Assembly: GCF_023055435.1 (NCBI RefSeq)
Contig: NW_025964112.1
Location: forward strand, 60,078,001 to 60,142,000
Origin: Haliotis rufescens
Taxonomy: Eukaryota
DNA: 64,000 nucleotides
Reading direction: 5' to 3'
This document shows positions 13,921 through 60,300 of this stretch, piece by piece. The position numbers were made by a program, and so were the translations under genes. The notes beneath the pieces were generated by a model. The model worked only from the letters and a program-made list of their open reading frames with translations. It was not told the origin of the DNA and did not search any database. How positions within the stretch are numbered: the first letter of the stretch is position 1; every line of letters starts with the position of its first letter.

Positions 13921-15986
13921 TTCAGATAAAAAATAAGAAGACTTGAGGGTTCCTCAATAATCGAGAGGACTTTTACAGATTTAGTTCATTTAGCCTCATG
14001 CATAGCTTTATTTTAGGGACTATATGTCACTTTAATGTGCATTATACAATGAGAAACGAGAGGGGTTTGAAAAAGCTTGAGGTAAACTTGCTGAGACTGC
14101 AAATTTATCTTGAGAATAATTCCCCATTAACATTCTTTGTGATACAATTTGTTTTCTATATGACATGACTCAAAGGTCAATGAAAAGAACATTAAACATA
14201 GTCTCTGCTTTTGCCGGGGTGTATTTTTTATTGGCTAAGCCTTATAAAGGCATCCTTACTGTTAAGATGTGATTTGTGCGTTTTGAAATTGGATTGTATG
14301 TCGATATGAGTGCATTAGACCGTCTCTCCGAAACTGCGTATAGATCACCTACCAGTGCCTTTCTCGTGAACAACTGTCAAAAAACAGAATTCAAAAAATA
14401 TCAACCGTAAAAAAATACTCTCATAAAGAATATCGCGTCACAACAAACAATAACTTGCAAACATTCAGTTTCTCACAAACGGCCATGATGTATTGCTGGG
14501 GGTCACGCCAAAAGCCAATCAGAATGATTTACAGCACATGTTGTCGCTTGTGACATGGACAAATATGTCGCTTAGATTGAGTTGTTGACAAGCGTTTCGA
14601 CAAAGCGACAAGCGAATTCACTGGAATGAAATTAACGCCCCGAAATTGACGTAGCGACTGTTGACTATGTCAGTGTTTTAATTGAGAGTTTAAGTCAAGC
14701 AGTGTTATTCACCATGTTAATTAAGAGTACGTGCCTCTTTATTCTCAACCTGTCATATGGACTATCTGTTCTGTCATTAGCAGCATTCCCGTTGTTTCTG
14801 CTGAAATATAGGATATGTGCCTGGATGGGAGATATGTCCTCCAACATGTTGCGTGCAGCTATTGGTGCATAACCCTTCCTACAGCATAACTGGTAGCATT
14901 CGGAACACTTACATTCAAACTGGTGGGACGGTAACGGTCTCTGTTTTGTTACAGTCGTGATCAATGTGTAACAAGTGGCTAAGTGTGCTAGCATAGGAAG
15001 CCTCAAACACTATATGCATTCATTTTCGTATTCATTTAATCCCTCTAGTTTTCAGTCACTGAATAAGGAAATTTAACATAAAAATATTTGGAATTAGTTA
15101 TCACCAAAAAATAATTGCACAGATTTCTGTCAGTTTGTAAAATGACTGAAATATTTAGGCATTTTGATAATTAAGAGTTATTTAACACTATAAGTTTCTA
15201 CTTACGAAAGAAAAACATGTTTATTTAATTACTTGCCATTAATAGACCATATTTATATTTTATCATAAAGCCTTATGTTTTTAATTACACATCGGACAAT
15301 TAGATAATTTCATGGTTACATTCAACTTGACCTTCTTTGCTGCTTTGATTCCCTATGTGAGTAATTTTCAGTGATTTTCAGTAAATTTTCCATTTATTCA
15401 ATTTTCAACACTAATTTGTCTTTTACGCCCAATTGAATCTGTTACGACAGAAATAAGAAACTAATTAGTGGAAAGTGGACATCAATCTTTACTTATATAT
15501 AGTGATCATACATTCCATTGACATTACACGTTTATTGTATAAACCTCAGATGATATGTTGCTTTATTGTGGAGACGTCAAGGGGCATTTTTTCGCCGGGG
15601 TATCTGACAACACAATTTCACGAATTACGTCATAGGGTGTTGTGACGTGTTTGAAAAGTTTGTGGTACTGTATTCCAAAGCTGGGCTCAGAAAGGTCTAC
15701 TTGAAACCAATTGCGAAACGTTAAATGTTCGTGATGTCATGTCCTGTCATGATGTCAATCACTCGATTGTCTAGCCCAGACACAATTACTTTGAGCCATC
15801 GTCAAACAGCTGGAATTGAGAGCGGCGTTAAACAACAAACAAACAAACAAACAAATACTGGGAGCCGTACCACCCTTAGTAAAGGTTTTTAACTTCTAAT
15901 TATCTATTAACCAAACAGACAAGTAAATAAAATCGAAGTGTACAAATGCCGACTTTCAACTCATGTGCAATATTTTATATCAACAG

Positions 15987-16291
15987 GTCCCCGTATTCGC
16001 AAGATGAGGAAGAGGGAGAAGAGCACGGAGGAGAAGAGGCCCCGGACAGCGTTCACAACAGAGCAACTGGACAGGCTCCGTGATGAATTCAACGACACCC
16101 ACTACCTGTCCGAGGATCGACGTCGTGTGCTGGCAAAACAACTCAGTCTCAACGAAACACAGATCAAGATATGGTTCCAGAATAAAAGGGCGAAGTTAAA
16201 AAAGTCATCGTCCTCCGAGAAACCTCTTGCCAGTAAGCTAATGGCAGAAGGGCTATACAACCACTCAACGTTCAAACCTGACGGAAGCTGA
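15987..16291 (+). CDS. en: engrailed-class homeobox gene, coding exon 2 (EH3, homeodomain, EH5)
   Basis: The acceptor caacag|GT joins exon 1 in phase (PSA-G-PRIRK). Homeodomain [16 protein letters not shown]...[15 protein letters not shown], then EH5 [19 protein letters not shown] at 16289-16291. Intron is 1859-15986. Confidence 0.97.
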
Positions 16292-18416
16292 CGTCAAGCG
16301 TTTCAGTGATGCCAAAGACATGTGCATTTAATGTTGCTGCGTTCTAGTTGTGCGCAGTATGATACAGGCTTAACGTTGTGGCCCAGTGCGTGAAGGTAAT
16401 AGTTGGGCCATTGGTGCATGATGCTAAAAACAACCTCTATTTCACGATAAGATTTTATGTATATAGAGCTTTTTCAATATTCATTGAATGATTCACCAAT
16501 AAGCAAGGGAACAATCGAACACTTCAGTTGTGTCGAAATACCGGGTGTTAACCAGGAAGAACAGCCAGAGACTGCACCCATCACCTGTGCGTTGACACCG
16601 GTATCCCAGTTCCCCGGCAGAACAGGTGTAACACCTCGAAGGAACAATGTACATATTATACACAACAGCTGTAAATTTGGTATTTTATCATTTCCAAGAT
16701 CTATATGTTATAAACCCTTATATGTAAACTCACATGTATTTGTGCATATGTTGAAAAGGATGAGGTTATGGCTCACTTGAAAAGTCAATTATAAATTTAC
16801 GGGAATTATTTACATATTGTTTTGAATGTTATTGGGCATGTTTATATGATAAGCACTGCTTTTTCTTTCTGTCGCTTGCAATGTTTAACCTTATGCAAAT
16901 GATATGGCTAAAATGAGTGAAGATTTCAACTGTAATAGAATGAGCATATCCGCTACCCAAGGGGAATATTTTACCATGTTTGTACTGACTTAGACTGCAT
17001 CTCAGAAAATCGGCCTAGGTCAAAGACATTCTTAAAGTGATGATAACGTTCATAACGTTTTCTGAGGATATGGCATATTTCTGATACACTACTCAACAAT
17101 TGATAGGGATAATCAACTACGTCATTTTATTTAAATGTACACGTGACGTGTAAGAATCATTTTTGTACATAAAAGAAAGGTTACAAATTTCCCTATCAAA
17201 AGCGGAGTAGCATATAATGGAAACGAAGTAGGTCCTTATCAAAGCTAGTTCTTTCGATGAATCATGACAAGCAATGTGTACGTACCGAATTATAGTGTAG
17301 TGCATTCTTCCTACGCAGTGAACTTTAACACGAAATACTAATAAATCATTTTGTAAAAAATATTTTTCCGAAGTTTTTTACATTTTCTATTTCCTGCATC
17401 TCGGACAAAATATTTCCAAAACAGACTTACTGGTTTTTACTTCGGCTCCCAGACAGGTTATCAGTGTCATAAAGATGTTGTGGTGGACCGCCTGTCCTCG
17501 AGATGTCCTCGAGATGAGGACACATCTTCCCTCCTTGGACCAAGCAACAAGCAATATTTGAATCCCAGTGTTTCTATGATGCTGTCTTTGATGAAATCGC
17601 CTCATCAGCAGCCAGACGCACTGAATTATCTCTTTACGAATAAATTACACTATTTCGACATGGTTTCTCGAGTTTTATTTTCAGAAAACGCCTTTCAAAT
17701 CTTGATAGTCGACCTTATCTGGATTTACTGACAGCATTGCTCTCGAATTAAATGGAAGATTTAGTGCGAGACGAAAAAGTTAATGTTTTTGTATAAAGCG
17801 ACTTGGTACAGGTAAAAGCCTACTTCTCAGAATCTGTTAATATCAGTATTGGATTACTTAACCAACACTGATGTTAAACGACCTTTGTCAGTTCGTATAG
17901 GAAGGAGAGCACAGCAAATGAAATGTCTTTGAATAAAATGGCTGATTAAATCATGAATTTTATCTTCTTCTGGTCGGACTCTGCGACAAACATGAAATTG
18001 TAATTTGAATATCTGGCATTACACTCTAATAGAATCAACAGCCCTGGAGCATATTTGGTTTGGATGATGAGGGATGATGGGGTTTTTTGCTTCTTTGTAA
18101 GATGGTAAGTGCATACATATGAAGCCAGAGCATGTATTTTAGTTCAAAGATCAAAGTACCGATAATAATTGACTGGATGGAAGTACATGTGGGCAATATG
18201 TGAAATGATGACAATGCAAAATAATTTACAAGATAATTAATCAGCATATGTACATCCTTTGTAATCTCATAATACATTTAAAATGTGATTTTACATTCCA
18301 TATCAACTTTATAACATTCATCAGTCGGTACCGTCCGAGTTTATCGACTTAACAATGACACTACAGCTGACGTTTCATTGACGTCATAATGACGTCATGT
18401 TTGTGTAACATTGACG

Positions 18417-19047
18417 TCACTTCCTCCCTGGGAGCCCTGGGATACTGCAGTGACAGGCGTCTCCACCCAGCTGGATCGAACATAGATAGTCGCATATGTC
18501 TGTCGTGATAACTGGCGCAGGTGTCGTCCCGGAGTGGTGAGTGAGGTTTTCCTGGGGCGCAGCCCGTTCCCGGATGTCTAGAGGTAAAGCGACATGAACA
18601 TAAGTAACAGTAAGAGGGTACAGGACGCTAGATTTTTAGGTTAGTGGACACGCTTCCCTCGTGATCTGAGGGAATGGAATCATTCAACCCATATAGTTAT
18701 TAACACAATTAACACAACTGATACACGTACGTGTATCTAATGCCTTACCACCTTGTATAACCAATTAGCTTTTTTTTGCAACTGTATGCATACACACACA
18801 TCGAAAGCCAAATTCTCCTTAAGGAAGAGCGAATTCCAATCTATAATAAGTACCAACCTTTAAATCTGATGATCTGTCCATGTTCATCTGTCCATCTCTC
18901 CACGTTCGCACAGTCGCAGTGGTCCATCTTCTTCATGGCGGGGAAGTCATCCCCTTGCGAACAGAAGATGAGGCACACAAGAGGGGAGGCGTAGACGTAG
19001 CACGCTGACAGTGCCAACGTTGTCAGGATGGGCACACACGACCGCAT
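18417..19047 (-). CDS. Secreted cysteine-rich precursor with C-terminal amidation signal (candidate neuropeptide/effector), 2 coding exons, 116 aa
   Basis: Exons 19047-18858 and 18577-18417 join in phase 1 (AAAG|gttggt ... ctctag|AC). Protein: MRSCVPILTTLALSACYVYA-SPLVCLIFCSQGDDFPAMKKMDHCDCANVERWTDEHGQIIRFKDIRERAAPQENLTHHSGTTPAPVITTDICDYLCSIQLGGDACHCSIPGLPGRK*. It has a hydrophobic signal peptide, two CxxxC..CxC motifs and a terminal G-R-K. An acceptor-like tttttatcccag near 19115-19126 suggests an upstream non-coding exon. Confidence 0.8.
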
Positions 19048-19271
19048 GCTTAGTTCAGCAGGACTCACCTCTGACTGAATTCGACAAACTTGTACGTAGA
19101 CTGTCGAATTGATCTGGGATAAAAACATATATACTTTACTTTTCGTTCAACTACAGAAGAAGAATTATGTCTTCTTACAAATACTCATTCTTAACAAATT
19201 ATCTATCCTGATGATGTAGCGTAGATTTCACTTCGAGGGTGCACTTGTTGACAAGTATGCATGCATGGCAA

Positions 19272-19438
19272 TATAGTAAAGTACGTTTATAACGAACACG
19301 CTTACAACGAACTGACGGATGTAACGAACTGATTTTTATGTCCCGACTTTTTGCTATAATTATGCTGTATATATATATGCTTATAACGAACTTAAGTTAG
19401 TGGTCCCTTTGAGTTCGTTATAACCGTAGTTTACTGTA
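19272..19438. mobile_element. Short MITE (Tc1/pogo-like ends)
   Basis: tagtaaagtacgtttataacgaac ... gttcgttataaccgtagtttactgta are inverted ends. Partial copy at about 11640-11727. Confidence 0.65.
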
Positions 19439-19552
19439 GTTGGTGAACAAGGAGTCGTCTGTGTAGATTCCGAAAAGCTTGTCCAAAGAGCCGACTGAAC
19501 ACCCGTTCTTCAAGCTTTGAACAACTGTTACGGCCGTCCTGACATTGCTGGA

Positions 19553-19623
<71 letters not shown>

Positions 19624-19665
19624 CACAAACGCATGCATGCACGCACTCACGCACTCACGCATTCA
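19553..19665. repeat. (GCAC)n/(AC)n microsatellite
   Basis: Direct reading. Confidence 0.95.
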
Positions 19666-20903
19666 CTCGATGTCACCTAACTATAAATAGACAATGCCTT
19701 TTAGAAAGTGGTCAAATGTAACGTATGCTGTATTTGGGATAAAACTTTCTTAGGAAAGTAAAAACTCTAGTCCCCAGAGTGAGTCGCTAATCGCTATTCA
19801 GTGTGCTGACGATAGGGTGCTTTACGCTGAGATTGTGGATTCGAATCCCGGATCTGACTCCACATAAACAAGTACTAGAATTTGTACTTTACCGAGGAAG
19901 TGTTGTCCCAGTACAGCATATGTCATATCTCTGTCATGGTCACACAACTTATACATGACACACAAGGCTCCCTAAATTATCATTATTTACTAAATGATAT
20001 AAAGCTATATAACTCAGAACCCCTTCACGTTTCAAGCAACCTAAAAAACGTAATTCACATGCCATGTGCCTCTTAAGAGTCAGCTGATATTATACCGAAC
20101 TTATTTATTTGTTTATGGCAGTGCCCGACAAGGTGAGGCAAGGCTCCTACCTTCCACAAACACACCGTAAATCAGGACACTACGCCGGGAGACAGAAAAT
20201 ACATTATCTGCTTGTAACCAAGAACCTTTGGTGGATCTTTATGTCTTAGGAGCTATGTAACACTAAGCCCGGATACACGGGTATGTTTGTGAGCTACTCC
20301 ACGGCGTGTAACGATGGCAAGGCCACTCTTGTTTATGATACTCGTAACGTGCTGTATTAAGTCCTTGTAAGGTGAGACACCACGTCCTGCCTGTCATTTC
20401 AACGTATACGGATTTGCATTGATGGTCCTGTGGTTGGAATTGCCATGTGTAACCCACGTGCGCACACCGTTAACAATACCAGGAGATTTGACCACAGTCC
20501 GCATGTACTGGAATCTATATGATTCTCAAGTAGTCGTATATGTCGTGGTAACAGCTCGCTGCGTTACAGAGCAGCTTGTTGTGTTTTTCAGTTGTTTATT
20601 TACAGCTTTATGTGTTAGGCAGGTTAACAAGCATACAGAATGACGTATCCTCTCGTTAGATACGTTTTGAAATACACGAGGCCTAATAAACACAGTATTT
20701 GAGGAGACACCTATGTAATTACTTATGAATTAATTTGGTAATTCAAAGACGAAAATGAGACATTAAATACTGTTTCCCAGTGATGAATGATACAAAATAA
20801 ACAAAAGTGACTCGACTAACTGACGTTAAAATAGTAAGTTTGCTGTACATTAGAGATAATTGATAACAATAAAATAATCGTGTCAAATGATGCGCTCAGG
20901 TAG

Positions 20904-21142
20904 GAGTGAGTGAGTGAGTGAGTGAGTGAGTGAGTGAGTGAGTGAGTGAGTGAGTGAGCGAGTGAGTGAGTTGGGTTTAACGGTGTAGGTCTCAGACGTT
21001 TAGCACTTTGGTGAAACATACGAGCACGGGTATGGTTTTGACAACCTAAAATCAAGGTCGGGGCGAACGGGATTCGAACCCACGATCATAGGTTTCTGGA
21101 GCGCCCAAAGGGACCTTAGACGACTTGGCCACCCGTGTCCCC
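20904..21142 (-). mobile_element. tRNA-derived SINE with long (ACTC)n tail
   Basis: Minus-strand head GGGGACACGGGTGGCCAAGTCG...GGGTTCGAATCCC. Related pieces at about 23100-23280 and 5620-5750 share caggtctcagacgttta...tgaaac. Confidence 0.7.
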
Positions 21143-21989
21143 TCAGTCACACTTATGAATACAATTACAGCTTAGTTACTTCGAGGCTGTAGTAGCAGTG
21201 ATCGTGTTGTGTATTAGAACCACGAAAGCCAAAATGCCCGTTTGTCTTTGCTGGATTAATCTGTACTGGCGATTACTTGGGATGAAGATAGTGAAGATGA
21301 AACTGTTCCAAATTCAAATTCAACCAATATCGTTTCTTTAAAGAAGTTTTAGTTAAATGCATGGATATTTCACTGTCATTTAGAAAAAGGAAGGGAAATG
21401 ACGTGTGTTGATTTCTCTTTTACATATCACTGAAAAGTGATTGTTGTGCATAATGCTTTCCACGCTTACTGGCTGCATCCGAAGCAAATAAATAACCAGG
21501 CAACATATTTCTGCTAGCATCAAAATGACTAGATATTAAAAAATGTCTACAGCTGTGTCATCAAGTATATCCAACTGAAAGGGCTAACTGATGCGGACAA
21601 GGTGTCACCGTTAGGGGATGATACTCCCTCTTTTGCCTCTGTTAAGAGGTGAGCAGTTGAGTTGAAGATGAGGAGGAGAGAGCATCGAGGGGAAGACCTT
21701 CAACCGCCACCAAGCAAATTTGATATTTTTTCTGCTTCAGCTGCAAAACCATTTTTTTTAATTAAAACTATGAGCCTAAATATTTTTCGTTAAAAAGCGT
21801 CTTGCAACAACGTTGTTTTTCAGGCTGACAATTTCTTTTTTTCCCAACAGCCTAAAGCATAATTCTTTTTCAAGCACTTTCTGTGACAACTTTTTTAAGA
21901 ATATCAACAGGTCACTGTGTACAATAATGTCCATGCTTACAGACTGCATCTAAAACAAATAATGTGTGTATCTCGCATGGTGGATTTCT

Positions 21990-22383
21990 CCTGTTGGACT
22001 ATCTCCCAAAAGGTCAGAACATTAATAACCAAAATATGCCAATCTGCTGAGAATATCAAAGCTAAACGTCGTGGAAAACTAAAGGTGTGATTATTCCAAC
22101 AAGTAATTACACCTGCGCATAGGTTTTCTGTCGCCATGACTACAAAACATGACTGTGGCTTTAAACTCATTGAACCTCCCCGTATTCACCAGATTTGGTA
22201 CCGTCTGATTCCCACATCCTCCCAAACTTGAAGAAAGAACTGTCTGGCAAGCATGATACAAATGGAGATACTTTCTGCTGGACTTATTAGAGGAATTATG
22301 TTGACAAAAGATTAATCAGCCACCAATTCCATCAACGCAGTTCATCAAAAATTGGCTCCAAACTTTTCAGTCACCCTTCCTAC
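21990..22383 (+). mobile_element. mariner transposase 3' remnant with right terminal repeat
   Basis: Frameshifted translation gives DYLPKGQNIN..YANLL..KRRGKL..PAHRFSVAM..DCGFKLIE.PYSPDLVPSDSHILPNLKKELSGK (mariner YSPDLAPxD motif), ending in aaacttttcagtcacccttccta. Confidence 0.8.
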
Positions 22384-22899
22384 TACATATTATACAGATC
22401 ATATTACGATACAGAACAGATACATGTTACTATATTGGAAGTACACATTACTAAATGAGAAGCACATGCTACTGTAAAGGAAATTCAAACTGTACGGTCA
22501 ACGAGAGAATAACTAGTGGCAAATATCTGCCGAAACAGTGGGTAAAGAAGTGTGAAAACTCCACGAAAAGGGCACAGTATGGGATAAGATCGCACATCAC
22601 ATTGACAATCGACGTGTCATATTTAGTAAATTCCTCTGAATTCTACAATATTTTTGGAACGATTTAGACAGGGCTTTGAACGTGCAACCTTGTTTGAAAA
22701 GCATAATTGCAATCAAATGTCCGTCTGAATAATTGTGCATGCGCTAAGAAGCATCATCACTAGACATATGCTGATATCCTGAGGTAGAGTTGATGTCATG
22801 TTGAAGTCACCCCTACTGTCGTGCAGCGGGATACTGAGGCTGCCATCATTATGCATTATACACAGTGGTCTGTCAGTTGGTCATCTATACATCTGAAAA

Positions 22900-50460: not shown

Positions 50461-53400
50461 GAACTTAACTACAGCCTTCACCCTCATGGTGTTATTGTGA
50501 TTGATAAATAAAATCTGACCACCATGCGCTTATTTTGTCCACTTCTACACTATTACGACAAAGATGCCTAGTCCATTTATGGTGCCCAAGATTCCTACAA
50601 TGTGGCCTATTCTCATGGCACTAAACACATTCTAGCATGGTCTAACATAACATGACATACATGCAAAGAAATCATAGCTACATGAATGATGCCATAAAGT
50701 GCAGTCTGCAGACACGAGTGTCCAATGGACACTTTAAAGGCTTACAACGAGCGAGACTGCTTCAGGTAGTCCAGTTAGGAATTTACCTACAACCTTAATC
50801 GTCATGGCATAGTTGTGACAGATACATAAAATATGACAACTGTGTGTTTATCTTGCCAACTTCCATACTATTATGACAATAATCCCTAGTCCATTTACAA
50901 TTTTCAAGATTCCCACAATCAAGTCAATTCTCAATCACATACCAGAAACATTTAACAATCTGTACAATTCCTGCTATACAATAAGCATATGGCTATGAAT
51001 CACTGTTCAACAAGGATGATACCGGGTGTTCGCGAAAAGCTTAACGTAGCCTGCCCCATCGGTGGAAGTCGTCACAAACACACACAAAGGCAATTCATTT
51101 GTTCAAATGATCAAACACTAGAATAAATTGCACGAATCAGTTGTCAGGACTAGTAGTATCAATCATTTGATNNNNNNNNNNNNNNNNNNNNNNNNNNNNN
51201 NNNNNNNNNNNNNNNNNNNNNNNNNNNNNNNNNNNNNNNNNNNNNNNNNNNNNNNNNNNNNNNNNNNNNNNNNNNNNNNNNNNNNNNNNNNNNNNNNNNN
51301 NNNNNNNNNNNNNNNNNNNNNNNNNNNNNNNNNNNNNNNNNNNNNNNNNNNNNNNNNNNNNNNNNNNNNNNNNNNNNNNNNNNNNNNNNNGTATGTAAGA
51401 GGGAGGATCACCCGGTCGTCTAAAGCAGCTGCAATTCGCTGGGCAAAGTTACGTCATTTCAGTTGTTCAAGGATCTGCTGATCCTGATTTTGAATCCCGA
51501 CTTCTACCCGAGGATCATCCTTGGTATGTCAGCACCATACCCATGTTCGTTGGATTCGCCGAAATGATGAATGCATCACTTTGGTTTATATACAGTCATA
51601 TTATGCTGAAACGTCGTGTTATATAGAGATTAATACACGAGTGTCTATCAGATACCATTCATCTTACAACGAGTGCAGTAATCTGTTTCTTACACACCCT
51701 AAAATCGCACCATTACAACATCGAATCGATGCATTTAGTCTATGTTCATGATGGCAATGGCGCATTAATACATAACACAACGGTCATGAATGACGTCATC
51801 CAACGTACTGCTTACTACTCATAAATTATTTGAGCCTACACAAAAAGGTTTCCGCCATATCTGTGGATTATCATGGCGATGATGATCATGCAAATTAGAT
51901 TAGATCAAAGAAAGAGTAATCATAATAGTTTCACCTCAAATAAATAGCTAAATATGAACAACAATGTTTATTCCGTATGTCAAAACTACTGGTGACCGAC
52001 TTTTGTCTAAATGGAGTGTTCACTGACAACAGTAAGCGGAATTTTCAGAGGAGGGTTTTCGTTGATCGATGGATTATATAATACATGTGTTATGTAAGTA
52101 ATCAGAAACAGTCTGACAATTTGCGTACTGTTATTTGTTTTTAGGTTTTCCAATAATACCAAGAGAATTAGTCAGATTAGCAGATAACTACCGTTGCCGT
52201 TGTGCGTGATTTTCCGTCAGTCATGGCGTCACAAAGGACGGAAACTTTTACGATTTCTGTTGAATTTACCTGATCATTGTTATGTATATATTTTTAATTC
52301 CATAATTCGTTGCTACGATATTCTTCCATTAAATATCCTCAAACACGTGAGCCAATGTATGCAACAATTAGACGAATGGAACTCTCAAAATAGGAGAAAG
52401 TGTTACACAGAGTAAATTCGGAATTTTGCTATAATTACATTTCAAACACGTACAGTTTTACTAGCACAGCGTTCGCTCCCACACCTAATTTATTTCGCTT
52501 GATTCCATCTAGAAACTTTGTTCGTTGTCATTTGATTCTAAAATGTATGAGCAATTCAGAGATTAGGAGTCGCAGCTGAATTTGAAGTATATGTGATGTT
52601 ATAGACGTCTCATAACCGGCACACATCAAACGTGATTTGCGGAAAGTACACTTCGAGGTTCGTGTATGCGTACTTTCCAAAATTCTAGGCTTATCGGCGA
52701 CGTTTCAGAATTACACCAGTCATCACAAATATGTTATTTTTCAAATTCAATTCAATTCGGAGTAAATCTCTTATATTCGATTTCTAAACCTACATTAAAT
52801 AACGCCGTGAATTGTGATTCTGTAATGTATCGAAAATGGCCACATTTGCAATGAAGCTTGGTACGCTATATTATCGCGGTTCTAATTTGTTATAGATCGT
52901 AATGCTGCACGCTTACAAACCTATAAAATATGTCATACGCAAAATGTTTCTTGTTATTTGTTCAGCCTTTATGACATATCAATCAGGAATGATCGATGCT
53001 GATTTTCGGTAAACAAAGTCGATTTTCAGAGCTCATTTTCAGTAAGTTTGTTTTGCCTAAAAGTGACAGTGATACATATCACACAACAGGTAACTTCCCA
53101 CAGAATTCAAAACTGTGATGTGTATTAGTGTGCGTGATGTATTTTGAATTTTATTGAAGTGTAGCATCCAGGGGGCACTCTAAAACCATAATGTTCAACA
53201 CAGGTGTAGGTGAACATTCGACTGGAGCATGAGAAACATCAATGACTTACGATCAGGAAAGTATTCCGTCATGATCTGACCTTAGGTCATAACCAAGAAG
53301 TAGCCAATCACAGGCCTGGAATTCGATCCACACATATGTCAGATTCCAGTTATCTCAAATTGGTTTCTCACCCACAGGTGTGTAAGAAACCCGAACCACA

Positions 53401-55511: not shown

Positions 55512-55861
55512 CATCAGTCTATAGATAATTGACTGCATATCTACACCCGATGGAGATCAATAAGAGGAGGCTGGCGAACCTGGGGGATTATCTCATCTGT
55601 TTCCATCACCCTGTCCGTGAGACCAAAGCGGTGGCCACTTGGCTCTTTGACATTGCCGTGGTAACTGACATGAAGATTGGATGATGATTATCTATTATTC
55701 TACGTGTGCCAGATGCAGGTGTAATCTTCCATCTGATCCACTAGACATGTCAGTCTCCGTGTGACAGCCCCCAACACGGAAGGACGTGTGTTTGTATATA
55801 AGGCATGGAACAGGAAGAGACGACACATTTTGTGAGTTCCACCTGATACAAGACATCTGCC
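55512..55861 (+). promoter_or_regulatory. Proximal promoter of array copy 3
   Basis: Homologous block with gtatataagg TATA upstream of ATG 55862. Confidence 0.65.
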
Positions 55862-57395
55862 ATGATGAAAGTCACATGTTTCCTGGTCGCTGCCGTGAGT
55901 TATTTCCATGCTTTTATTTTTTCCTTTTAATTCATTTGCACCTTTCATGTCTGAAAAAGATAACAAATCTAGCATGTTCGATTGTCCCACGCTTATACCC
56001 AATAGTATATAACTCACATCACATAAAATGTCTTATATATTATTCTTTTGATTTACTGTATATATCCCCAGTAACATATGTTGAAACTAATTGGGTGTTA
56101 GTCTGGTGCATCGTGTCTTATCAAGATTTAATGTTATATTTATCTGTTTTCAGCTTCTGGCATGCTGCGCTGCCCAGATGGGCCAATACTGTGGGGTAGG
56201 CTTTCAGAAATAATATAAACCATATGCACCCACTGTAGAATAAATGTAACGTTGATTACACCTAAACACATAGATTTCAATTTCTAAAATCGTTACCGAA
56301 ACCATGAAGCTTCTTTCATGTTAATATAATTGTGGCTATAAGTCGGTAGTCTATGTCTTTATACCATCCAACGATTCCCGACATATTTGGTGCCCCCTGC
56401 CGTGATATTGCTGGAATATTGCTACAACAGGCGTAAAACCATATTCACTCACTCACTCACTATATCATCCCAGAAAATTTCATTCTTCCATTATTCACAC
56501 AACTGTTAGACCCGAATAATCCAATGTTACTAGTTGAAATACATGTAAATAGAATTTGGAACAATCGACCAATTATTACATATATAGTGATCAAATCATT
56601 CTTGTATTTTTGTTACAGAATGTAATGTGCCCCCAAGGGTTTGAGTGTAGTTATTCCTCGATGGGCCAAAGCCAGTGTGTATGTGAGTATTTCTATGCCT
56701 GTATTACATTGTTATACATTGTCTTTCCCTGTAACAGAACTTCAAAACTCTGCCAGTATAGACATTCTTAAATCAACCACATCGACAAAGACTACTTCGA
56801 ATATGACATCTTCAGTTCAAGCAAGGAATGTTAAGTATAAGCATATATCTATGGCGTAAGCATCTATGTTTCTTGGTTTATAGATATTTATATTGTTTGG
56901 TGTTATAAATGCTTGGTACTCTTCTGCTTGGTTTTCCACTGGTCCAGATTGTTGTCATCATATATATCATTACATATCTGTGACATGAAGTAGCCCTTAC
57001 TATTGGGTCACTCAATAGCCATTCAAATACCATCTGTCATTCTTACACACAATTTACTCACGGCTATCTTCTGTATTTGTACTTAAACACTTAATCCAGA
57101 TTTCTGATCCTGAACGTTAACTTTCATCCCCTCAGCTAACAACTTCGTCTGCCCACAAGTCTGGATCTCCAACACCTATGACTTCAAGTCCTGTTCTGGG
57201 TTCGCCGGATGTGACCCTTACAGTGAGAAATGTTGTAATGGTGTGTGTATGAAAGGACCTTCTCTGGTGGCCTTCTCCAACAACGGCTGGGGAAGCGGCC
57301 CCGGCGGCCCCGGTAGCCCCGGTGGCCCCGGCATCCCCTATTCTGGTGCTGAGAAGACCTCGGAGGAGGGCAAGAAACCAACGGGGTCCAGATAG
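55862..57395 (+). CDS. Secreted FOLN-like/WAP-like cysteine-rich protein, array copy 3 (4 exons, 132 aa)
   Basis: Exons 55862-55894, 56154-56195, 56619-56682, 57136-57395, intact. Tail reads GSGPGGPGSPGGPGIPYSGAEKTSEEGKKPTGSR*. Confidence 0.88.
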
Positions 57396-60300
57396 GAACT
57401 TAACTACAGCCTTCACCCTCGTGTTGTAGTTGTGATTGATGAATAAAATCTTACCACCATGCGTTTATTTTGTCCACTTCTACACTATTACGACAAAGAT
57501 GCCTAGTCCATTTATGATGCCCAAGATTAAAATGAGCGAGACTGCTTCAGGTAGTCCAGTTAGGACTCAATCGTCATGTGTATAGTTGTGACAGATACAT
57601 AAAATCTGACAACCGTATGTTTATTTTGTCCACTTCCATACTATTATGACAATAATACCTCGTCCATTTACAATGTTTAAGTTTCCCACAATCAAGTCAA
57701 TTCTCAATCACATACCAGAAACATTTAACAATCTGTACAATTCCTGCTATACAATAAGCATTTGGTTATGAATCACTGTTCAACAGGGATGATACCGGGT
57801 GTTCGCGAAAAGCTTAACGTAGCCTGCCCCATCGGTGGAAGTCGTCACAAACACACGCAAAGGCAATTCATTTGTTCAAATGATCAAACACTAGAATAAA
57901 TTGCACGAATCAGTTGTCAGAACTAGTATTATCAATCATTTGATCTCCTTATGTGATATGTCAATCACGGCAATACCCCAATAACGCCCTGTTTGCGTGG
58001 AGCCGATGGAGCACATTTTCTTTATGTCTCCTGANNNNNNNNNNNNNNNNNNNNNNNNNNNNNNNNNNNNNNNNNNNNNNNNNNNNNNNNNNNNNNNNNN
58101 NNNNNNNNNNNNNNNNNNNNNNNNNNNNNNNNNNNNNNNNNNNNNNNNNNNNNNNNNNNNNNNNNNNNNNNNNNNNNNACAAACATACACACACGCATAC
58201 ATTTTGTGTCATTGTGTGTGCAAAGCTCATGTGATGGTATGTAAGAGGGAGGACCACCCGGTCCTCTAAAACAGCTGCAATTCGCTGGGCAAAGTTACGT
58301 CATTTCAGTCGTTCAAGGATCTGCTGATCCTGAGTTTGAATCCCGACTTCTACCCGATGATCATCCTTGGTATGTCAGCACCATACCCATGTTCGTTGGA
58401 TTCGCCGAAATGATGAATGCATCACTTTGGATTATATACAGTCATATTATGCTGAAACGTCGTGTTATATATTGATTCATACACAAGTGTCTATCAGATA
58501 CCATTCATCTTACAACGAGTTGTTTCAAAACGTATTTATTCAGATACGCTTTGAAACAACAACTTGTAAGATAAATGGTATCTGACAGGCACGAGTGCAG
58601 TAATCTGTTTCTTACACACCCTAAAATCGCACCATTACAACATCGAATCGATGCATTTAGTCTATGCTCATGATGGCAATGGCGCATTAATACATAACAC
58701 AACGGTCATGAATGACGTCATCCAACGTACTGCTCACTACTCATCAATTATTTGACCCTACACAAAAAAGTTTCCGCCATATCTGTGGATTATCATGGCG
58801 ATGATGATCAGGCAAATTAGATTAGATCAAAGAAAGAGTTATCATAATAGTTTCACCTCAAATAAATAGCTAAATATGAATAACAATGTTTATTCCGTAT
58901 GTCAAAACTACTGGTGACCGACTTTTGTCTAAATGGAGTGTTCACTGACAACAGTAAGCGGGATTTTCAGAGGAGGGTTTTCGTTGATCGAGTGAGTATA
59001 TGATACATGTGTCTTGTAAGTAATCAGAAACAGTCTGACAATTTGCGTACTGTTATTTGTTTTTATGTTTTCCAATAATACCAAGAGAATTAGTCAGATA
59101 AGAAGATAACTATCGTCGCAGTTGTGCGTGATTTTGTGTCAGTCATGGCTTCACACAGGATGGAAACGTTTACGATTTCTGTTGAATTTACCTGATCATT
59201 GTTATATATATATATTTTATCCCATAATTCGTTGCTACGATTCTCTTCCCTTGAATATCCTCAAACACGTGAGCCAATGTATGCAACAATTAGACGAATG
59301 GAACTCTCAAAATAGGAGAATGTGTTACACAGAGTAAATTCGGAATTTTGCTATATTTACATTTCAAACACGTACAGTTTTACTAGCACAGCGTTCGCTC
59401 CCACACCTAATTTATTTCGCTTGATTCAATCTAGAAACTTTGTGCGTTGTCATTTGATTCTAAAATGTATGAGCAATTCAGAGATTATGAGTCGCAGCTG
59501 AGTTTGAAGTATATGTGAAACGTGATTTGCGGAAATTACACTTCGGGCTTCGTGTTTGCGTACTTTACAAAATATTCGAAACAAGTCTACGCTTATCGGC
59601 GACGTTTCAGAATTATCAGTGGTGATTTGGTGAAAAACACACACCCGTCATCACAAATATGTTATTTTTCAAATTCAATTCAATTCGCTGTAAATCTCCG
59701 ATATCTCGATTTCTAAACCTACAGTAAAAAACATCGTGGATTATAATTCAGTAATGTATCGAAAATGGGCACATTTGCGATTAAGCATGGTACGCTATTT
59801 TATCGCGATACTTAATTTACAATGGATCGTAATGGTGCACACTTACCAACCTATAAAATATGTCATTCGCAAAATGTTTCTTGTTATTTGTTCAGGAATG
59901 ATCGATGCTGATTTTCTTTTGCGATATCGGTAAACAAAGTCGATTTTCAGAGGTCATTTTCAGTAAGGCTTAGTTTGTTTTGCCTAAAAGTGACAGTGGT
60001 GGATATCACACAACAGGTAACTTTACACAGAATTCGAAAGAATTCATTAGTGTGCGTGATGTATTTTGAATTTTATTGAAGTGTGGCATCCAGGGGGCAC
60101 TCTAAAACCATAATGTTCAACACAGATGTAGGTGAACATTCGACTGGAGCACGAATAACATCAATGACTTACAATCAGGAAGGTATTCCGTAATAATCTG
60201 ACCTTAGGTCATCACCAAGGAGTAGCCAATCACAGGCCTGGAATTCGATCCACACATAATAATGTCAGATTCCAGTTATCTCAAATGGGTTTCTCACCCA

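Follow-up and report, generated by a model that had tools for sequence, protein, structure and literature searches.

A gene with two coding exons beside engrailed in the abalone Haliotis rufescens encodes a predicted amidated peptide precursor related to an Aplysia putative pheromone

The DNA considered here (the window) is a stretch of 64,000 nucleotides from Haliotis rufescens, numbered from its first base. On the minus strand it carries a spliced gene with a defined reading frame, whose two coding exons (19047-18858 and 18577-18417) flank a phase-1 GT-AG intron of 280 nt. The features of this gene and of its neighbour are the following:

19048..19113, minus strand: untranslated 5' stretch of exon A, preceded by an acceptor AG at 19115-19114 (from the sequence and the contigs of X1, X2, and X10)
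18858..19047, minus strand: coding exon A, 190 nt, with the ATG at 19047 and a phase-1 donor GT at its 3' end; it encodes a predicted 20-residue signal peptide, an N-terminal C-x3-C-x14-C-x-C unit, and the start of the linker
18578..18857, minus strand: phase-1 GT-AG intron, 280 nt; joint present in three of three presumed-RNA runs and in none of one DNA-like run
18417..18577, minus strand: coding part of exon B, following a pyrimidine-rich AG and ending with a TGA stop; it encodes a Thr/His/Pro-rich linker with an N-x-T sequon (residue 74), the C-terminal module, G-R-K, and the stop
18420..18500, minus strand: conserved C-terminal module C-x3-C-x4-GG-x2-C-x-C-x6-G-RK, with a predicted amidated product ending in Pro-amide
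17661..18416, minus strand: 3' untranslated region, from AATAAA at 17679-17674 and contig ends
15989..16291, plus strand: engrailed homeobox exon (Pfam Homeodomain, E 3.9e-22; Engrail_1_C_sig, E 4.2e-8), not part of the peptide gene

Contigs from four of the 24 listed sequencing runs (X1, X2, X10, and X17) were aligned to positions 15600-22400 of the window. X1, X2, and X10 come from three studies and are presumed, rather than recorded, to be RNA, and X17 is DNA-like. One contig each in X1, X2, and X10 joins 18577 to 18858 and skips exactly positions 18578-18857, whereas the X17 contig is continuous through the intron and has no splice joint. An earlier interpretation made from the letters alone (the sequence-only reading) had proposed this in-frame splice, which is thus borne out by the contigs; two alternative GT-AG pairings that reach the same stop were discarded, the joint 18858/18577 being the sole one among those listed. 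All three presumed-RNA contigs align up to the AG acceptor at 19115; their remaining 15-138 bases at the 5' end are unplaced on 15600-22400 and point to one more exon upstream. Since the 5' edge of exon A is an acceptor boundary at about 19113, the ATG at 19128 of the open-reading-frame track is intronic, and the same holds for position 19130, at which the sequence-only reading had placed the end of the feature. At the 3' end, the contigs of X1 and X10 stop at 17661 and 17672, beside the AATAAA, and that of X2 extends to 17158. The NCBI gene models of two congeners, P0001 of H. cracherodii (116 residues) and P0002 of H. rubra (110 residues), agree with this structure; P0001 differs from the 116-residue product of the window at four positions in a by-eye count. 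A degenerate pattern of the module matched once in the window and in none of 100 shuffles, which shows only the absence of a second copy, because the pattern was written to fit exon B.

The peptide gene and the engrailed homeobox exon are convergent, with 2,125 bp between their stop codons. The neighbourhood noticed in the sequence-only reading is confirmed by the Pfam matches; the only relation seen between the two is adjacency. Opposed AATAAA hexamers at 17639-17644 and 17674-17679 lie 30 bp apart (the hexamer is common, with 97 occurrences in the window) and, together with the contig ends given above, indicate that the 3' ends of the two genes may abut or overlap. Literature searches for synteny of engrailed and the peptide gene gave nothing relevant among the matches listed. 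Further upstream, a plus-strand exon at about 1590-1870 has no Pfam match and contains engrailed-type motifs, which we take to be the EH1/EH2 pattern; if it belongs to one gene with 15989-16291, the intron would span about 14 kb.

The joined exons encode 116 residues ending in G-R-K and a stop, in agreement with the C-terminus first read from the sequence and with the congener models. Cysteines are located at positions 4 and 16, within the signal peptide, and at 25, 29, 44, 46, 92, 96, 105, and 107, the signal peptide having been called from hydropathy and alignment. The sequence supports a precursor of the secreted type in which two CxxxC...CxC units are related to each other and the Gly-basic amidation signal at the end is conserved. 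The residues before the terminal Gly are P-G-L-P, and the module contains two Asp and zero Lys or Arg, unlike cationic defence peptides. No dibasic site is present in the linker between the two Cys units. KK, RFK, and RER are poorly supported as cleavage sites: KK (residues 39-40) forms part of the N-terminal Cys unit and is missing in H. rubra, which retains R61 and R68 but no other residue of RFK and RER. For the module, AlphaFold2 predicted a helix-loop-helix with modest confidence (pLDDT 71, pTM 0.39), and the model of the full precursor is weak (pLDDT 68). Pfam has no family for either exon, nor for the proteins P0001, P0016, P0034, and P0006, and P0004 gave two sub-threshold matches. A PDB sequence search yielded zero matches at E 10, Foldseek with the full model zero, and the VIA wide structural search with the module zero at Z>=2; as the models are weak, no new fold is claimed. 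The top score in the ESM Atlas was 0.83, for an arthropod cluster that serves as a lead only, and the module had no usable match there.

A first profile built from P0001 and P0002 was searched against 1.84 billion representative proteins (E<=0.001) and gave 43 matches, comprising P0002, an intron read-through form (P0003, in which exon A is read into the intron and which is excluded from the family counts), and 41 others. A second profile added eight relatives, including Dreissena, Crassostrea/Magallana, and Elysia, and a word-index search with P0001 alone returned Haliotis forms only. Of 30 relatives looked up, 19 are named to species, without exception gastropods or bivalves (Solemya, Saccostrea, Mytilus, Pinctada, Argopecten, Mercenaria, Mactra, unionids, Patella, Gigantopelta, Littorina, Babylonia, Aplysia, Lymnaea, Physella, and Bulinus); the named relatives include no cephalopod or non-mollusc, a result that argues only weakly for absence from these groups. 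The conservation of the Cys pattern and of the terminal Gly-basic signal on which the sequence-only reading depended was found in these proteins, 49 of 51 having the exact spacing C-x3-C-x4-GG-x2-C-x-C-x6-G. Among their 53 modules, 44 end with Gly plus a basic residue, eight end at Gly, and one does neither, so that 52 of 53 have a Gly-basic end or a terminal Gly; Pro directly precedes this Gly in 98% of the 48 unique modules.

Behind the signal peptide, 33 of the 51 family proteins have a looser, separate CxxxC...CxC unit, which in P0034, P0006, P0007, and P0012 is close to the C-terminal module; this resemblance supports the earlier suggestion that the two units are related. The linkers are mucin-like, with a mean of 30% Ser+Thr, and contain a dibasic site in nine of the 33 two-unit members. 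In P0004, P0005, and P0006, the module is repeated two to three times with every copy closed by G-K-R, and in several relatives (P0004, P0005, P0006, P0012, P0018) KR or a single R lies a few residues upstream of the module; such KR-flanked repeats resemble multi-copy prohormones. H. cracherodii and H. rubra share 19/20 residues of the signal peptide, 18/26 of the N-terminal unit, 21/41 of the linker, and 29/29 of the module. Over 24 non-Haliotis rows, mean identity was 0.72 for the module versus 0.21 for the N-terminal unit and 0.07 for the linker, a comparison that is biased because the relatives were retrieved via the module itself. From protobranch bivalves to pulmonates, the module is about 70% identical. 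Two proteins of Physella acuta (P0039 and P0071) have the same module behind a six-Cys N-terminal domain that database names describe as an LDL-receptor-like repeat. The Mactra paralogues P0026, P0044, and P0035 have consecutive locus tags, as do two of the Dreissena paralogues P0032, P0037, and P0025, and the family appears to have undergone tandem expansion in these heterodont bivalves.

Among the relatives looked up, the sole informative name is that of the Aplysia californica "putative pheromone" (NP_001191460 / Q06AD3, here P0016). The abalone precursor is identical to it at 24 of 32 C-terminal residues (75%, E 2e-16), and the profile matches it with E 5e-8 among 1.84 billion proteins. 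The Aplysia protein has 124 residues, namely a 23-residue signal peptide followed by 101 residues with eight Cys. Both precursors share the signal peptide, the eight Cys in two CxxxC...CxC units, the Thr-rich linker, and the terminal Gly with two basic residues; unlike the abalone linker, that of Aplysia contains an RR pair, and the loop of the N-terminal unit comprises 17 residues in Aplysia versus 14 in abalone, with no BLAST similarity in this part. On these features, the abalone gene is grouped with the Aplysia putative pheromone in one family. The earlier statement that it could not be assigned confidently to a named family can be sharpened by this grouping and by the scaffold shared with HFAamide (see below). 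The mature form of the Aplysia peptide Alb-1 reportedly has 101 residues and eight Cys, figures that the size and Cys count of P0016 fit. Reported sites of Alb-1 expression are the albumen gland, the atrial gland, and the ovotestis; in a rhinophore assay, its N-terminal fragment was reportedly active and its C-terminal fragment not. The title of the study calls it a candidate water-borne pheromone. Presumably, NP_001191460 is this Alb-1 of Cummins, Degnan and Nagle (2008). The accession is not mentioned in the searched literature, and the combination of Alb-1, Aplysia, and pheromone occurs there in three papers, in two of them as a reference-list entry and in one as a low-identity label.

This kinship raises the possibility of a chiefly exocrine function, as a water-borne reproductive cue of the Alb-1 type that leaves the animal with gametes or mucus and is conserved between sea hares and broadcast spawners. 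The closest named relative, with its 24/32 identities and the same eight-Cys two-unit layout, favours such a function, as do the title of the Alb-1 paper, the reported gland expression and active N-terminal fragment of Alb-1, the mucin-like linkers (30% Ser+Thr), and the tandem copies in Mactra and Dreissena. Species-signalling pheromones, however, usually diverge, whereas the module is about 70% identical across molluscs, and an albumen gland is not known from either bivalves or abalone. We therefore regard a mainly exocrine role as rather unlikely.

A second link leads to HFAamide, a neuropeptide of Platynereis and other lophotrochozoans with the same scaffold C-x3-C-x4-GG-x2-C-x-C-x6-G-basic and a predicted amide. 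In the available part of supplement 3 of PMC6425005, the spacing is the same, with KR following, in 18 of 18 precursors compared by eye, only the first of which is labelled Platynereis HFAamide. It is also the same in eight of twelve labelled rows in the accessible part of PMC8557429, the others being three phoronid rows with the Cys and amide spacing and without GG and one with a longer loop. The comparison with published neuropeptide sets that had been suggested earlier hence yielded an identical scaffold; the abalone-type family itself has no member in the available passages of the supplements of neuropeptide papers, including PMC6425005, where a name already given to it may have escaped detection, and its module motifs have zero occurrences in the main texts of the searched literature. 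Nor was kinship of the two families found stated in that literature.

HFAamide and the abalone peptide differ in several respects. The former ends with H/Y-F-A/T and is basic, whereas the latter ends with P-x-L-P and has an acidic module; HFAamide directly follows the signal peptide and precedes a long pro-region, whereas the abalone module is C-terminal and comes after a degenerate unit and then a Thr-rich linker. Since Solemya velum and Pacific oyster each have both HFAamide and the abalone-type family, the two would be paralogues. An identity of the abalone peptide with HFAamide itself is ruled out by the tail, the charge, the position in the precursor, the split in the tree described below, and the occurrence of both in one species. 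Traits resembling the abalone-type family are found within HFAamides in the available rows, a Lingula member ending with Ile-Pro-Gly-KR and Lineus members carrying GGDAC.

A pattern that fits both families was used to scan 120 of about 610 metagenome stretches and detected 21 unique HFA-type modules, which were picked by their tail and therefore have Phe at -2, and 17 other stop-free matches; no convincing member of the abalone-type family was among them, and the best-scoring match (L018/L053) was treated as a chance hit (no signal peptide, GC-rich DNA). At the unfixed columns, the HFA-type modules scored -30 on the matrix of the abalone family versus -52 for the 17 other matches and -47 (sd 10) for random sequences, and the abalone-family modules scored -26 on the HFA matrix versus -39 for other matches and -36 (sd 8.5) for random ones. 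This order was unchanged when the tail was omitted; the cross-family scores are negative in absolute terms and the decoys are of low complexity. When all six frames of the window were searched with a profile of the 21 HFA-type modules, the abalone exon ranked first (E 4e-4, the next being 0.21), and the bridging members P0034 and P0006 gave E 3e-6 and 2e-5 (Z=1e6), P0001 only 0.56. A tree from 26 columns separates the two sets by a long branch (100/99), the bootstrap not having settled. This branch, the differing tails and layouts, and the weak cross-scores would also fit a signalling peptide unrelated to HFAamide, with the shared spacing due to convergence on a small stable hairpin; the exact coincidence of seven fixed positions and the following basic residue, and the intermediate tails or loops in Lingula, Lineus, P0034, and P0006, make this highly improbable. 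Common ancestry of the abalone-type module with HFAamide is considered probable rather than nearly certain, given some circularity in these tests and the low complexity of the decoys. The abalone gene is likely a paralogue of HFAamide in molluscs that differs from it in tail and layout.

The function of HFAamide is listed as unknown, and it has been recruited into cone snail venom (PMC13542836); in the passages available for the oyster, its expression is mainly larval and low in ganglia (PMC8398477). One metagenomic precursor (L068:701-972) contains two HFAamide modules, and divergent tails of the HFAamide type (HFV, YFA, KFA, KFV, LFA, HFI) occur in contigs L002, L010, L012, L014, L022, L034, L064, L065, and L113. 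Such sequences suggest a lineage-specific expansion of HFAamide.

Several further families were compared with the abalone precursor and rejected. PXXXamide, iPTH, and QSamide resemble it by a Pro at position -4 from the predicted amide; for PXXXamide/iPTH, an upstream KR and a conserved N-terminal SD are described, and ligand cysteines are not mentioned, in the accessible part of PMC7224569, and the abalone precursor lacks this KR and SD. The C-terminal domain of the Marmite/neuropeptide B family is likewise secreted with four Cys near the C-terminus; its Cys are 9-13 residues apart versus 3-8-1 in the abalone module. The published primer of the haliotid growth-associated peptide (HGAP; 96 residues, 16-residue signal) has zero matches at <=3 mismatches, and five DREP families were also discarded. 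CS-alpha-beta defensins, which have six Cys, a helix with two strands, and a cationic character, do not correspond to an acidic precursor with four Cys per unit, two predicted helices, and no Pfam or fold match.

A role as a secreted peptide of defence or matrix, with a cysteine-stabilised helix on a mucin-like stalk acting in mucus, haemocytes, or mantle and with the amide as a stabiliser only, would account for the Thr/His-rich linkers, the tandem paralogues of bivalves, and the Physella form with its LDL-receptor-like N-terminal domain, and the CxxxC...CxC arrangement recalls defensin-type cysteine-stabilised helices. This explanation is nevertheless distinctly unlikely in view of the four rather than six Cys per unit, the acidic charge, a conservation far above that usual for defence peptides, the lack of a Pfam, PDB-sequence, or fold match, and the existence of KR-flanked multi-copy relatives.

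On balance, and with moderate confidence, we favour the reading that the module, predicted to be disulfide-bonded and amidated, acts as a receptor ligand within the animal and likely shares an ancestor with HFAamide. The signal peptide would be removed near residue 20, and each four-Cys unit is predicted, with modest confidence, to form two disulfides in a helix-loop-helix hairpin. A carboxypeptidase would then trim Lys116 and Arg115, and PAM would convert Gly114 to an amide on Pro113. This sequence of signal cleavage, disulfide formation, trimming, and amidation is very probable given the standard secretory pathway, and the Pro113-amide is further suggested by the conservation of the Gly-basic end. 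Processing at one of two lone arginines, R61 or R68, which H. rubra also has, would free a probably glycosylated C-terminal piece of about 45 residues; alternatively, the whole 93-residue chain would bear the amide. Calculated monoisotopic masses, for two disulfides and an unglycosylated chain, are 4611.13 for 45 residues (cut after R68), 2588.12 for 25 residues, and 2487.07 for 24 residues. The amidated tail may bind a G protein-coupled receptor in an endocrine or paracrine manner, and the exocrine use in Aplysia would then be a likely co-option. More specifically, we tentatively propose an uncatalogued gastropod-bivalve family of amidated hormones, arisen by duplication of the HFAamide module and having its own receptor, with Alb-1 as a member co-opted as an external signal, much like the recruitment of HFAamide itself into cone snail venom.

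The gene as such was already known, being modelled in congeners as "uncharacterized". New is its placement in a family of peptides that occur widely in gastropods and bivalves and whose amidation-ready end is strongly conserved, by which a little-studied candidate pheromone of Aplysia is tied to the orphan HFAamide neuropeptides. If the proposed function is correct, the list of molluscan peptide hormones would gain one family, and a defined ligand of 24-45 residues would become available for receptor screens, the module being useful to deorphanise a lophotrochozoan G protein-coupled receptor. It would also provide a case of a hormone reused as pheromone and a candidate regulator of spawning or growth in farmed abalone and oysters, without representing a new kind of mechanism.

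Elsewhere in the window, three alike small Cys-rich frames with a Gly-Pro-rich tail are found at about 41140-41460, 50190-50530, and 57110-57460, and the copy tested has no Pfam match. They apparently lie inside a larger tandem duplication, as the frames 48592-48959 and 55700-56199 repeat too. A transposase remnant in several frames is located at 44315-45282 on the plus strand (DDE_3, E 8.7e-8), and short high-copy interspersed repeats occupy 19275-19440 and 21010-21115, where thousands of contigs stack.
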